49,174 nt of DNA from a virus (lineage: Duplodnaviria; Caudoviricetes). The stretch is from positions 1 through 49,174 of the IMG/VR virus record IMGVR_UViG_3300016665_000612; one strand, written 5' to 3'. This document shows positions 20,531 through 42,601 of this stretch, piece after piece. Every line of letters begins with the position of its first letter. Positions within the stretch are counted from its first letter, which is position 1. Under the pieces are notes generated by a model. It saw only the letters and a list, made by a program, of their open reading frames with translations. It did no database searches and was not told where the DNA came from. The position numbers and the translations under genes are program-made.

Positions 20531-20880
20531 CTTTCATCTTACCGCCACCCCACACAGTTCCACCAAGATTTCTATTTCTCACCAGAACACCAACCACCGA
20601 GGAGTGGAAAAAGGTAATATCCGACACAAACTACTCCAAAGGAGTTTTGGTTGAGTTTAAATCACCAATCTATGGTTTTAAGCTTAAAAATAAAATAACA
20701 GATTATTTACCAACAGAAGACATTGGCACTCTTCTTGTGCCAAATCACTATTTGGCTGCTAGCCTCTTACCAGTAACGACTGTAGACATGGTAACAGGAA
20801 AAACCACTTCCACTTTTGCATACACCATTTTGGCAAATAGCCAAGTCTATGTGGTTGATCTGCCTCAAGTTTATACTTGA
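20527..20880 (+). CDS. hypothetical protein (paralog of the previous gene)
   Basis: ATGA overlap; shared C-terminal motif. Confidence 0.6.
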   Translation: MTFILPPPHTVPPRFLFLTRTPTTEEWKKVISDTNYSKGVLVEFKSPIYGFKLKNKITDYLPTEDIGTLLVPNHYLAASLLPVTTVDMVTGKTTSTFAYTILANSQVYVVDLPQVYT

Positions 20881-20927
20881 TTGAAATACGGTTGATTTTT
20901 TGCGGATATGGTATATACTCTCACTCT

Positions 20928-22007
20928 ATGAGTGATTGGCTAGTACATCTAATTCAAGTTGGCCCAATGGGGAAGCATCCAAATGCTGACTCTCTTTCCA
21001 TTACCCAGGTTTACGGGCAGAACATTGTTTGCCGCACAGATTCCTTTAAGGAAGGGGATCTTGCGGTTTTCATCCCACCTGATTCTGTCATGCCAGCAGA
21101 CAAAGATCATGTGATCTATAAAGACAATCCTGGTTTGAAGTTGGGACAGTGCATTGATGCTGTTCGGCTTCGTGGTATTTTTTCCAATGGTTTCATGGTT
21201 CCTGCTTCTGTGTTTTTTACAGAAGCAGAACTGAAAGACATTCCAATTGGGACACACGTTGCTGAACGAATTGGCATTACCAAGTATCAGGATAATGGCG
21301 ACCTTCTTTCCACTCGTGGAGATAATGAGCGCGATCCTGGTTACATGCCAACATACACGGACATTGAAGGTTGGCCCAAGAATCGCTTCTACATTCAAGA
21401 AGGTGAACAAGTAGTTCTGACTGAGAAGATTCATGGAGCCAATGCTCGATTCTGTTATCGTGATGATCGCCTGTGGGTTGGTTCCAGAACAGGAATCAAG
21501 GCGCAAGGTATTCGTGCTGATGGCACAGAAACAAACATGTGGTGGAGTGTTGCAAAAAACATAAACCTTGCAGACAAGTTTAAACAGCTTCAACTTCAAC
21601 CAACAGTTGATGGCGTTCCAACTTGGGATCTGGCTCTTTACGGTGAGGTATACGGTCAGGTTCAGGATCTCAAGTATGGTGTTTCCAGTGGTGCTCAATT
21701 CCGTCTGTTTGATGTTTACAGCCCCTCTCTGGGCCGTTATGTCGATTGGGATGTGGTTGTGAGGGTTGCAGCCATCATGGGTTTGGACATCGTTCCTGAG
21801 CTCTACAGAGGCCCCTGGAAGGCAGAACTTGAGGGGATGAGGAACGGACCTTCCATGCTCTATCCAGGTCACACAAGAGAGGGTTTTGTGATCAAGCCTG
21901 TGATCGAACAAGAAGTGCTGTACAACCCCGAGAAACGTTCTTCTTTTTACGGTCGAACAATTTTCAAAATGATCGGGGAAGACTACAAACTTCGCAAACG
22001 TAAATGA
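20928..22007 (+). CDS. RNA ligase, DRB0094/Rnl5 family
   Basis: N-terminal OB-like HPNADSL...LRGIFS.G; TEKIHGAN, YGEVYG, FRLFDV, REGFVIK, IFKMI. Confidence 0.85.
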   Translation: MSDWLVHLIQVGPMGKHPNADSLSITQVYGQNIVCRTDSFKEGDLAVFIPPDSVMPADKDHVIYKDNPGLKLGQCIDAVRLRGIFSNGFMVPASVFFTEAELKDIPIGTHVAERIGITKYQDNGDLLSTRGDNERDPGYMPTYTDIEGWPKNRFYIQEGEQVVLTEKIHGANARFCYRDDRLWVGSRTGIKAQGIRADGTETNMWWSVAKNINLADKFKQLQLQPTVDGVPTWDLALYGEVYGQVQDLKYGVSSGAQFRLFDVYSPSLGRYVDWDVVVRVAAIMGLDIVPELYRGPWKAELEGMRNGPSMLYPGHTREGFVIKPVIEQEVLYNPEKRSSFYGRTIFKMIGEDYKLRKRK

Positions 22008-33653: not shown

Positions 33654-34136
33654 ATGCAAGAACCAAAACCGCCCGTAATGCCAGTTGAGTTAGTTGTCCA
33701 ACCTGAAACAAAAGTTGTTGTTCTGGCACAAAAAATATTTTGCCTGGATGAACACATTAAGGACATAAAAGAATTCAACTACCAATATCGCAGATATAAT
33801 TTGATAGATGGTTGTACGTTTCATAACTTCGATTATGAAAACAACTTCTTTTCTCTTCAAGAGATTTTGAAGGCTTCTCAAGGTTTATCACCTGAGTTAA
33901 TTCGAATCTCTGGGGAAAGAGATAGAGAAGTTAGTTTTGTGATTGCTTCAATCGTTTATGAATCTCCATACTCCGAAGAAGAACTTACGGAGTTGAAAAA
34001 GAAAAACCTTGCTGCAAGAGCAAAATACGAAAAAGAATATGCTGCTTATCAAGCAGAACTGAAAAAGTTTGAAGCTGCAATGCTAAAAAAGCATATCAAA
34101 GAATTGCAAGAACGTCTTGAAAAGATGAAGAAATGA
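33654..34136 (+). CDS. hypothetical protein with C-terminal coiled coil
   Basis: 160 aa ORF. Confidence 0.65.
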   Translation: MQEPKPPVMPVELVVQPETKVVVLAQKIFCLDEHIKDIKEFNYQYRRYNLIDGCTFHNFDYENNFFSLQEILKASQGLSPELIRISGERDREVSFVIASIVYESPYSEEELTELKKKNLAARAKYEKEYAAYQAELKKFEAAMLKKHIKELQERLEKMKK

Positions 34137-34372
34137 ACAGTCTTTTAGAAGCAATGGTTTTCAGGATTATTCGAAAACAGTGTTGTCGTCCTGATTACTG
34201 TCACAGTTGCAATCAATACATTGATCCTGAGTGTTGCCACTGTGGAACAGAAAAGAACCATCATTACTACGAAGAGCACATGTTTGTTCCATCGGGTTGT
34301 CTTTGTGGGTATTCTGATCGTCGAGCAAACTGGTATTGTTACGAACACAACACTCGATGCAAAACCAGTTGA
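34133..34372 (+). CDS. Cys/His-rich zinc-binding protein
   Basis: Multiple CxxC pairs; ATGA overlap. Confidence 0.6.
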   Translation: MNSLLEAMVFRIIRKQCCRPDYCHSCNQYIDPECCHCGTEKNHHYYEEHMFVPSGCLCGYSDRRANWYCYEHNTRCKTS

Positions 34373-34406
34373 CAAGCTCAGAGAAACTTGGTAGAGTGTA
34401 AAAGTA

Positions 34407-34551
34407 ATCAGGCGGTGGGCTTAGAAGCAGCCATCCTTAATGAATACAGCAAGTGCCACGCAGGGTGCGAAAAGCAGTAGTATGGTAACAGTACAAGCTG
34501 TGATGTGCCAGTGGGAAACATGAGTTGTTTTGGCGTGATAGCGCACCTGAT
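34407..34551 (+). ncRNA. RNA resembling 23S rRNA helices 43-44 (uL11-binding GTPase-associated centre) with an internal expansion
   Basis: GGCTTAGAAGCAGCCATC.TTAA.GA ... GCGTGATAGCGCAC closed by ATCAGG/CCTGAT; directly after the promoter TTGACA (34369)-TAGAGT. Confidence 0.7.
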
Positions 34552-34558
34552 ATGAATT

Positions 34559-34630
34559 GGCTCTGTGGGCTAACGAAGTCGTCCGGCGTGGAGTCGGAAA
34601 ATGCAAGTTCGACGCTTGCTGGAGCCGCCA
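34559..34630 (+). tRNA. tRNA-Pro(TGG)-like, atypical
   Basis: GGCTCTG/TGGAGCC-G-CCA; TCCGG-CGTGGAG-TCGGA. Confidence 0.5.
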
Positions 34631-34637
34631 TCAACAA

Positions 34638-34913
34638 ATGGAAACACCTAAGACCCATGCAGGGTTGGTTTGGTTGTTGCGTTTGGTGATCACCTATCAA
34701 CTTGGGTTTTTAAATAAACTCCCCAGCCTAGCCCGCAGTCGCGGAGGATGTCTGGTGTAATCGCAAGATTTGAAGTTGAATGGGTAGTGGTGGCAGGGGC
34801 ACTATAAACCCCTCCAAACCAAGTTTAAAACTTACAACTATTTTGGCCACTTGGTTGGGGCAAAAAACAAAATGGTTGGACCATCAGCCAGAGTCGCTGC
34901 TCAGGGTGTTCAT
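34638..34913 (+). ncRNA. putative structured ncRNA (~275 nt)
   Basis: AACACCT/GGGTGTT closing helix; TAGTG/CACTA hairpin whose loop AGGGG can pair with downstream CCCCT. Confidence 0.5.
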
Positions 34914-34938
34914 GCGGTAAGATGGTAGCCGTATACAT

Positions 34939-35011
34939 GGGTCCGAAAGCTTTAGTGGATGAGCCTCGGTCTTTTAAACCGATGAAGAGGGATCGTTACC
35001 CTACGGACCCA
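34939..35011 (+). tRNA. tRNA-Lys(TTT)
   Basis: TCGGT-CTTTTAA-ACCGA; T-loop ATCGTTA. Confidence 0.8.
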
Positions 35012-35089
35012 CTAAGGGGCACAAAGTCAACTCCCCCATAAAACTGCGCACTTGACACATCGGAGAGACGGTGATAGTATAGTTTCAAT

Positions 35090-35161
35090 GGCTCTGAAGC
35101 TCAACGGTCGAGCGGCGGTTTGTTAAACCGATGGAAGTGGGTTCAACTCCCACCGGGGCCT
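35090..35161 (+). tRNA. tRNA-Asn(GTT)
   Basis: CGGT-TTGTTAA-ACCG. Confidence 0.8.
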
Positions 35162-41053: not shown

Positions 41054-41541
41054 ATATTTTTGCTCTTGACATAGATCCCGAACAAGCTGCAAAGTGGCAT
41101 TGCGATGCTCATGTGATCGTAATGCCCAAAGAAGCTGCACAGATGCTTTCCACGATTCATAGAATCGCTGGGCATCATGGCAGTTTTTACCAAGCAACTC
41201 ACCGCAACCATCCTTGCACCCTGTGGGCAAGGTCTAGCAGGGAAAACTATCTTTGGCTTTGGCGACTTGGATACTTTCTTTGTCAAGAATATACTTTGCG
41301 TTATGGCAAAGAACACAGATCACAGGCTGTACTTTCTCAGGTAAGGAACATCCCGGATATTGTTCCAAGTGGCAGACTGACAAAGTTTCCACTTGTCATG
41401 CCTGATGCCTACAAAGATTCAAATCCCATTCATGCTTACCGGAAGTTCTACCGGGGCGAAAAACGCAATGGCCGTCTAGGCACTTGGAAGCTCAACAAGC
41501 CCTATTGGTGGGATACGACACTCACTCAGTTCTGGCTTTGA
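41050..41541 (+). CDS. pyrimidine-dimer DNA glycosylase family (DenV-like) protein
   Basis: MNIFALD.DP..AA..HCD.HV..M..E.AQML, TH.NHPC..W, EY..RYGK.H, AYR.FY. Confidence 0.8.
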   Translation: MNIFALDIDPEQAAKWHCDAHVIVMPKEAAQMLSTIHRIAGHHGSFYQATHRNHPCTLWARSSRENYLWLWRLGYFLCQEYTLRYGKEHRSQAVLSQVRNIPDIVPSGRLTKFPLVMPDAYKDSNPIHAYRKFYRGEKRNGRLGTWKLNKPYWWDTTLTQFWL

Positions 41542-42008
41542 CCACGAGGCTTGTACTCAACCTGATAAGGGTTCCAGATGACAATTTCAGTCAGCGTTCC
41601 ATTGAAATACTGAAAAATTGCATCATGGCCTTTAGCTAGGGCAAGCTTTTTAAGCTGGGTGCCAACATAGCCGTACTTCTCTTCTTCTTTTTCAACAATC
41701 CTTATGGCTTTTTCCTCTTGAACCCCAAGAGCGACTAAAGCTTTTATTACTGGATGTTGTTTGTCGCCACTTTCAATCTTCAAAGGATTGCGCACACGAA
41801 GTCTTGTTTGAACAAGAATGCCACCTGATTCTTTGGCATATCTTTCTGCAACATTTTTAATTGGTGTGAAGTAGGCTCCCGCACCCAATGCTCCACGACC
41901 ATTCACTTTGATAGGCTTAATTCCGTCCCAAGAACCACCATGGTAAACTGGAGAGATGTTGAAGTCCTGATCGCTTTCCAGTAAAAGGCTGTAAAGACTA
42001 AATTTCAT
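41526..42008 (-). CDS. ADP-ribosyltransferase-like (ART-PolyVal-type) protein
   Basis: VYHG...G.GAYFT....AERYA...NPL...GHDAI...EIVIWNP.QV; TACTTA upstream. Confidence 0.6.
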   Translation of the reverse strand: MKFSLYSLLLESDQDFNISPVYHGGSWDGIKPIKVNGRGALGAGAYFTPIKNVAERYAKESGGILVQTRLRVRNPLKIESGDKQHPVIKALVALGVQEEKAIRIVEKEEEKYGYVGTQLKKLALAKGHDAIFQYFNGTLTEIVIWNPYQVEYKPRGQSQN

Positions 42009-42118
42009 GTAAGTAAGTATAATTTTCAATAGTTCTTTGTAAACTTTTTGTCCGAAATGTATTTACTTCTACAAACCCCCATGCTAGTATTAGCAAAGCA
42101 ACCAAACAGGAGAATTTT

Positions 42119-42601
42119 CTGAAAACACGAAAGAATGAGCAAATCAGAGCCTATCAAGTAAGTCTAATTTCCGCAGAAGGAAAGCTGCTTGGAAATTTTT
42201 CACGCAGAGATGCGTTGGAAATGGCTCGGGATGAAGGACTAGATCTGGTTGAGGTAAACCCCAATTCCAACCCGCCAGTTTGCAAGCTAGCCGACTATGG
42301 TAGAATGATGTATAATCTGAACAAGAACAAGAAGCCTGTTCAGAAGTCGGAACTGAAAACAATTCAATTGCGCCCTGGAATCGGGGAAAATGATCTTGAT
42401 GTCAAAATCAGGAAAATTGAAGAGTTTTTGACGGACAAACACAAAGTGTGTTTGACGATGAAGTTTCGTGGTCGAGAGATTGCTCACCAAGATTTGGGTC
42501 TGAAAGTTCTTGAGCAAGTTGTCGCTGCTCTTGGAAACAAGTACAAAAATGTGAGCAAACCAAGTCTGAGCAACAAAGTCATCACCATGATGATCGAGTG
42601 A
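42119..42601 (+). CDS. infC: translation initiation factor IF-3
   Basis: NEQIRA..V.LI..EG..LG, GLDLVEV...PPVCKLADYG, K.IQLRP.I...D...K, MKFRGRE; AGGAG RBS then CTG start. Confidence 0.9.
   Translation: MKTRKNEQIRAYQVSLISAEGKLLGNFSRRDALEMARDEGLDLVEVNPNSNPPVCKLADYGRMMYNLNKNKKPVQKSELKTIQLRPGIGENDLDVKIRKIEEFLTDKHKVCLTMKFRGREIAHQDLGLKVLEQVVAALGNKYKNVSKPSLSNKVITMMIE

Follow-up and report, generated by a model that had tools for sequence, protein, structure and literature searches.

Several described RNAs bear on the element reported here. The GTPase-associated centre of bacterial 23S rRNA, formed by the top of H42 and by H43 and H44 (E. coli positions 1051-1108), is the site of uL11 and of thiostrepton. 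Copies of an rRNA protein-binding site in RNA outside the ribosome are known from the leaders of ribosomal-protein mRNAs, notably that of rplJ (L10), and the kink-turn has been named as the uL10 site (both in the available passages of PMC10931766). These leaders act in cis on their own operon, the L10 leader making use of the kink-turn, and in the literature searched they were the only rRNA mimics described. Phages also carry GOLLD and ROOL, structured RNAs located near tRNA islands, with function unassigned in the available passages of PMC12286853.

The element described here shares the secondary structure and the core bases of the GTPase-associated centre. It is located in the window, by which we mean the whole stretch of 49,174 nucleotides that was analysed, a linear virus record estimated to be about 12 per cent complete. 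In the window 41 tRNA genes were called by ARAGORN, and Rfam gave 39 tRNA matches. Other genes include those for IF3 (42215-42601, + strand), a T4-type RNA ligase (1526-2758, +), a second RNA ligase (20877-22007, +), an HNH nuclease and an ART-PolyVal domain protein (41526-42029, - strand). The element, a predicted 145-nt mimic of the uL11-binding domain belonging to a short-H43 subtype (34407-34551, +), lies within the tRNA cluster in the non-coding gap 3' of a 79-codon ORF ending at 34372, and is flanked by a phage ORF on one side and by tRNA-like genes on the other.

As a reference for E. coli numbering, the Salmonella 23S record L126 was aligned by position. Positions 34407-34445 correspond to E. 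coli 23S 1050-1090, and 34533-34551 to 1091-1109; the two rRNA-like halves map to 1055-1090 and 1091-1104. An earlier, sequence-only reading of this DNA had described a likeness to H43 with its junction and to H44; all the letters named were found in place, and correspond to 23S when set against L126. The motif GGCTTAGAAGCAGCCA at 34418-34433 is the sole match in the window at up to two mismatches (chance mean 0.02), and GCGTGATAGCGCAC is located at 34533-34546. The parts of the element, all on the + strand, are arranged as follows. The 5' arm of helix P1 (ATCAGG, 34407-34412) is paired at six of six positions with the 3' arm (CCTGAT, 34546-34551); this closing helix had been recognized before, and it can be added that it occupies the place of the top of H42 (1050-1055), without the kink-turn Kt-42. 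H43 (34413-34436) consists of C1056, G1058, G1059, U1060, G1061, 1062-1077, U1078, C1079 and C1080, pair 1057-1081 being absent on both strands, and is followed by the junction loop 1082-1086 (UUAAU) and the lower 5' strand of H44 (G1087, A1088, A1089, U1090) at 34437-34445. Directly 3' of U1090 begins an 83-nt inserted domain closed by ACAGC/GTTGT (34446-34528), which contains a recurrent, unclassified module, a wobble-rich helix with an internal loop (GGUGC-GAAAA-GC ... GU-GAU-GUGCC, 34464-34509). A UUUG linker (34529-34532), kept across the family and absent from rRNA, leads to upper H44 and its 3' strand (1091-1104, 34533-34546), here with G1095 and G1101. The insertion of about 85 nt noted earlier is thus present as 83 nt plus TTTG, but it had been placed between H43 and H44; because these nucleotides fall between U1090 and G1091, it is H44 itself that is split.

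The bases of the tertiary core (U1060, A1088, G1071, C1072, G1091-C1100, C1092-G1099 and G1093/A1098) are all present in the window copy, and in the family they are fixed or nearly so. A1067 is present too, but position 1095 is G, where every listed rRNA match has A. Over the window no rRNA or other non-tRNA family reached the Rfam gathering score, and at 34300-35100 the matches besides tRNA were weak (E >= 2.5). That no other rRNA sequence flanks the element agrees with the lack of any match of the Rfam rRNA models in the flanks. A true 23S rRNA gene or fragment was rejected because there was neither flanking rRNA nor an LSU match at gathering score. The single-strand fold of 161 nt was no better than those of its own shuffles (z -0.31); folding energy of a single strand is therefore uninformative here, and structural support for the element comes from covariation in relatives.

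A predicted sigma70-like promoter (TTGACA-17-TAGAGT with an extended TG; 34369-34397, +) precedes the element and is present in related contigs too, before other DNA. It matches the consensus at 10 of 12 positions, and the start predicted from it lies a few bases 5' of 34407. In the earlier statement the element begins at the predicted start site of a consensus promoter; since the promoter scan gave eight sites compared to a shuffle mean of 4.8, 34369-34397 is to be regarded as a consensus match only. Across the family an own promoter was found in 11 of 113 cases (shuffle mean 4.1, maximum 10), and would thus be the property of a minority at best. On the 3' side ARAGORN called two degenerate tRNA-like genes, 34559-34630 (Pro-TGG, +) and 34939-35012 (Lys-TTT, +), both of which score under the Rfam gathering threshold (23.6 bits for the latter). 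The first of these starts 8 bases past the element and could set its 3' end. About 300 non-coding bases (34636-34938, +) are kept at about 90 per cent in the related contigs X3 and X4, and are possibly a second RNA. In a two-row fold 8 of their 25 differences fell in pairs kept by both rows, one pair being compensatory, which is weak because both rows were used in folding; a 24-mer search of viral contigs with this region gave no match.

A contig from another study (X2) spans 34217-34494 with one difference, running from the upstream ORF through the promoter and the 5' half into the insert. Run X1 contains the whole stretch, and may be the window's own source. The complete element was found in the records of the cultured phages XacN1, pf16, Aeromonas 4_4572 and UNO-G1W1, and both halves match in GAP32, CBB, BF, XbC2, Astolliot and several Erwinia phages; in none of five phage records inspected is the element annotated as RNA. 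With X2 extending over the 5' junction and both halves present in cultured phages, the element does not turn out to be a chimeric rRNA read, the eventuality that the sequence-only reading had named against itself. A full element is also located on plasmid 1 of Aromatoleum aromaticum EbN1 (207 kb, F-type; L832:1490-1770, +), followed by about 650 further unannotated bases and then an HU gene. The plasmid search matched 637 records, and those among the 30 listed look like rRNA operons. Phage collections do contain genuine 23S contamination (L127 and others). Contig X4 matches 34113-34411 and 34591-35057, with 186 other bases in place of 34412-34590, and contig X3 also diverges at 34411, its loose end bearing no likeness to the start of the mimic RNA family. 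Judged by this replacement and this divergence, the element looks like an exchangeable cassette downstream of a conserved promoter.

To collect relatives, an H43 word and an H44-side word were searched, each yielding at least 119 viral loci (about 260 and about 280 estimated, respectively), the latter with 57 genome contigs in addition. Pairing of the halves gave 244 elements, 170 of them distinct. Two of the 170 were dropped (one mis-parsed, one without a located junction), and clustering of the other 168 by insert resulted in 121 clusters. Of the 57 genome-contig loci, 27 were excluded because a 5' half was lacking within 700 nt; for the remaining 30 a prophage and a misbinned-phage origin are alike possible. 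The common plan is a variable helix P1, H43, the junction, GAGU, a helix-closed insert, UUUG, upper H44 and P1, the core amounting to about 60 nt and the insert to 37-365 nt (median 137).

Over the 121 clusters, pairing of P1 was 0.831 versus 0.449 when shuffled (maximum 0.491; 2000 shuffles), that of the insert-closing helix 0.785 versus 0.478 (maximum 0.532; 2000 shuffles), and the first insert pair was formed in all 121. Junction pairs were counted where the junction is of full length, in 111 clusters, with the 10 short ones excluded. In these 111 cores, pair 1057-1081 was AU in 101 and CG in 7; pair 1058-1080 was GC in 42, UA in 35, AU in 24 and CG in 6; and pair 1082-1086 was UA in 59, CG in 34 and AU in 12. 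Pair 1090-1101 was UA in 108, A1101 taking the place of U1101 of rRNA. The UUUG linker was present in 101 of the cores, and in 69 of 85 copies located via the other half. When RNAalifold alone was applied to 14 elements, that of the window among them, H44, the two H43 stems and P1 were all recovered. In the same 14 elements 94.0 per cent of the cells of the named structure were paired, compared to 72.7 per cent when shuffled and at most 46.5 per cent when slid; these elements were chosen for sharing the window's insert module and are related, so the shuffle figure is no probability. The homologs outside rRNA that the sequence-only reading had asked for are thus numerous, and their rRNA-like helices covary in the 121 clusters and in the 14-element alignment. 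Of its proposal of a functional mimic, the part that gains support from both is that of a conserved structural mimic of the H43/H44 domain. The family has the secondary structure of the H42 top, H43 and H44, from which the window copy lacks one H43 pair. From this modelling, the element very probably adopts the mimic fold of the uL11-binding domain. Two loci (L058 and L269) each contain two diverged copies. Viral mimics free of an insert and closed by a helix of their own were also seen (L072:1450-1535, -; L014:1480-1555, +). A Shine-Dalgarno-like GAGGTG and an ORF follow closely on the L072 copy, which may therefore be a leader acting in cis.

Because search words bias conservation, and in the counts over 121 clusters the positions within the search patterns are affected, each half was scored in copies found through the other. 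G1059-U1060, which is outside the search word, was found in 97 of 105 contexts; the 8 exceptions look like chance matches. In 100 copies located without the use of loop letters, U1066, G1071 and C1072 were invariant; A1067 was found in 85, G1068 in 80, A1069 in 91 and A1070 in 82, and loop 1067-1070 differed from AGAA in 46. In the other half A1095 was found in 80 and A1096 in 65 of 85 copies (placed automatically, a few possibly wrongly). In an rRNA control with the same positions left free, all matches listed had AGAA, AA at 1095-1096 and U1082/A1086; this control matched 85/151, 38/151 and 4/151 genomes in three phyla and rests mainly on two of them. Comparison of the copies with the rRNA control suggests that the fold is under selection and that the factor-facing bases are looser than in the ribosome, without being free. 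A simple pattern test detected the uL10 kink-turn (Kt-42) in a single one of the 121 clusters; the window copy lacks it. The sole cluster with a Kt-42-like pattern (L030:1399-1534, -) combines the shortest insert of all (37 nt) with a hairpin after A1077, an addition seen in 11 of 121 clusters. A uL10-binding mimic of the L10-leader type was rejected on account of this rarity of Kt-42 and of the lack of a conserved ribosomal-protein gene 3' of the element; in the window a tRNA-like gene comes next.

One base is missing from the junction of the window copy. A scan aimed at such short junctions returned 53 distinct contexts, the window among them, and in 49 of these the 3' half could be located. 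In 46 of the 49, P1 pairs better if the 5' strand is also taken to be one base short (mean 5.5 versus 2.6 of 6), so the window copy is regarded as a member of a subtype without pair 1057-1081, and not as a decayed copy. Within the subtype A1089 occurs in 4 of 49 elements and G1101 in 3, all among those 4 and including the window. This co-occurrence, small as the numbers are, hints at the 1089-1090-1101 triple. G1095 was found in 3 of the 49. A second recurrent insert module, CACCCCG-loop-GGUAAGG, lies near the 3' end of the insert in L006, L010, L036, L060, L070, L232 and L832, and is unclassified.

In 60 loci chosen from those with the element, tRNA genes were present within about 1.5 kb in 36. 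In 95 loci examined no neighbour ORF family was shared by more than 3, for which reason a conserved partner gene was rejected. Three control scans found the element in 1 of 64 loci with at least 10 tRNAs; it is thus a minority feature of tRNA-rich phages. Amber-suppressor (CTA) tRNAs were noticed near the element in L028, in L062 and in 10 of 71 long element loci. The CTA and TAG tests were confined to loci of at least 9 kb within the first 80 of each scan. CTA tRNAs were present in 8/43 element loci versus 2/56 control loci with at least 5 tRNAs (p 0.019), and in 6/30 versus 2/43 with at least 10 (p 0.058), counts in which redundancy is left uncorrected (L415 and L425 are apparent duplicates, and L386 appears related to L428). 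In the reverse test, the element was found in 0/55 amber-tRNA loci versus 1/43 Gln and 0/66 Met loci. Of 1295 stops near elements 247 were TAG, versus 191 of 1166 in controls; TAG avoidance was not seen, and a crude coding-density test flagged TAG recoding in 4/71 element loci versus 2/71 controls.

Van Dyke, Xu and Murgola (2002) reportedly saw L11 titrated in E. coli by a plasmid-expressed L11-binding fragment of 23S rRNA, and expression of such a fragment is said to have impaired UAG termination. The natural element might work in the same way. Probably a free-standing RNA, it would be transcribed together with the tRNAs of the cluster and cut to size by tRNA processing, and would fold into H43/H44 with the insert projecting from the 1090/1091 backbone; the free RNA would then bind host uL11. 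More ribosomes would become poor in uL11, functions that depend on uL11, such as RelA activation on stalled ribosomes and UAG termination, would be damped, and phage translation would be helped; RelA activation needs L11, and the other links of this last step are likewise general background. Among the proposed targets uL11 seems to fit best, because the fold and U1060-A1088 are kept, the GTPase-facing loop is relaxed compared to rRNA, and the kink-turn is gone in 120 of 121 clusters. Binding of uL11 by the element RNA is likely, as judged from sequence. That an off-ribosome RNA titrating host uL11 would be the selected function is a tentative reading, to which we give a little less than an even chance. 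The kept shape with relaxed loop bases matches it, and the wide spread outside rRNA, the covarying helices, the fixed tertiary core, the lost kink-turn and the lack of a conserved neighbour gene speak for it as well. Against titration stands the near-universal presence of a structured insert and of the UUUG linker, which it does not explain. Two variants alter the uL11-bound helix, namely the hairpin after A1077 and the loss of 1057-1081 in the window's subtype, and A1067 and A1095 would seem to be kept more than backbone binding needs. Most uL11 of an infected cell is already on ribosomes, which also counts against titration, and the prediction concerning UAG received little support from the amber-tRNA loci and the TAG counts (see above). 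The most far-reaching version, in which a phage and plasmid RNA family would strip uL11 from the host, reprogram ribosomes in trans, silence the stringent response and loosen amber termination, with a swappable insert adding functions, is doubtful.

An alternative to uL11 titration is that the element could be a decoy for another reader of the H43/H44 surface. That reader might be a thiopeptide antibiotic, a factor of ribosome surveillance, or a nuclease or modifying enzyme that host defence directs at this site of the rRNA. Since a decoy would be expected to change along with its target, the altered loop 1067-1070 in 46 of 100 copies, a loop kept in every listed rRNA match, counts against this reading, which we consider rather unlikely. 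For toxins that act on 23S, the review PMC7180214 names, in its available passages, the sarcin-ricin loop and loop 70, and H43/H44 is not among these targets. What a decoy would account for is that A1067 (85/100) and A1095 (80/85) are kept despite the divergence of P1 and insert into 121 clusters, that the element often lies within tRNA arrays, and that its occurrence is patchy (1/64 tRNA-rich controls, replacement by 186 bases in X4), as that of counter-defence genes may often be.

The insert would be the working part if the uL11-bound core served as a scaffold that stabilises or positions the RNA. Almost all copies have their insert at exactly 1090/1091, with the first pair formed in every cluster, and some inserts have covarying modules in common: that of the window was found, with compensatory changes, in 26 of 170 elements and 9 of 121 clusters versus a shuffle maximum of 4. 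However, the inserts, 37-365 nt long, form 90 groups without BLAST link between them, their commonest 7-mer occurs in 19 of 121 clusters, no Rfam family, introns included, was matched in the inserts of 20 loci, and the viral loci L014 and L072 have no insert. A scaffold thus appears unlikely.

It is very improbable that the element is a precursor from which the insert is excised intron-like, by cuts 3' of U1090 and 3' of the G that ends UUUG, to yield a continuous rRNA-like module, possibly a spare part for damaged ribosomes. Removal of insert and UUUG restores the rRNA junction as in L127, two RNA ligases are encoded in the window, and the insert ends fit the group I splice-site rule (U before, G last); inserts of 37-60 nt are, however, too small for a group I core. 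The pairing of A1101 with U1090 in 108 of 111 cores fits the unspliced junction, and a part working inside the ribosome would hardly be expected to have relaxed loops and no kink-turn. A group I intron in rRNA-like exons was rejected, the insert having no Rfam intron match and inserts being as short as 37 nt. Lastly, that the element is a piece of rRNA once captured and now decaying, or a chimera made in assembly, has next to no probability. One could cite for this reading the 23S contamination of phage collections and the differences of the window copy from rRNA at several positions, but it is already refuted by covariation with compensatory changes and by complete cultured phage records, X2 and the sharing of the window's two deletions by its subtype (46/49) pointing the same way.

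Rfam has no family for the element: only tRNAs reached the gathering score in 20 loci, and in 20 further loci only sub-threshold LSU rRNA matches were obtained over it. The LSU models matched the 5' half of several homologs with scores below gathering, the best being L119 (33 bits, E 4.9e-7). No description was found in the open-access literature searched, which included passages of PMC8058203, PMC7318152, PMC2175356, PMC5737381 and PMC13288928. The available parts of PMC10690425 report no rRNA overlap among its viral candidates, and the element motif is absent from 3 of its 6 supplement files; with coverage of these three, part of the RNA family may be among the unnamed candidates of that study. 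The uL11-binding centre is copied by a conserved RNA family that occurs in phages and on at least one plasmid, and that is apparently undescribed.

Unlike the 23S centre, the family is stand-alone and closed on itself, its H44 is split by an insert, it has the UUUG linker, A1101, a relaxed 1067-1070 loop and a covarying 1082-1086 pair, it lacks Kt-42 and, in the window's subtype, pair 1057-1081. From the L10 leader it differs in having no conserved downstream gene and no kink-turn, and in copying the uL11 site. Compared to GOLLD and ROOL it is much shorter, has an rRNA-derived core and shows no Rfam match to either; that it might be the 5' end of one of these was rejected for lack of such a match and because the element closes on itself. 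The family represents a natural mutational scan of a classic RNA fold, showing tolerated insert sites and a base-pair deletion. The cultured phages pf16 (Pseudomonas putida) and UNO-G1W1 (P. fluorescens), which grow on harmless hosts and in which the element is unannotated, make the titration reading testable. If true, it would tell what one class of the unexplained RNAs of phage tRNA arrays does, and whereas the known leaders act in cis, a viral copy of the uL11 site acting in trans would be a new way to control host translation.
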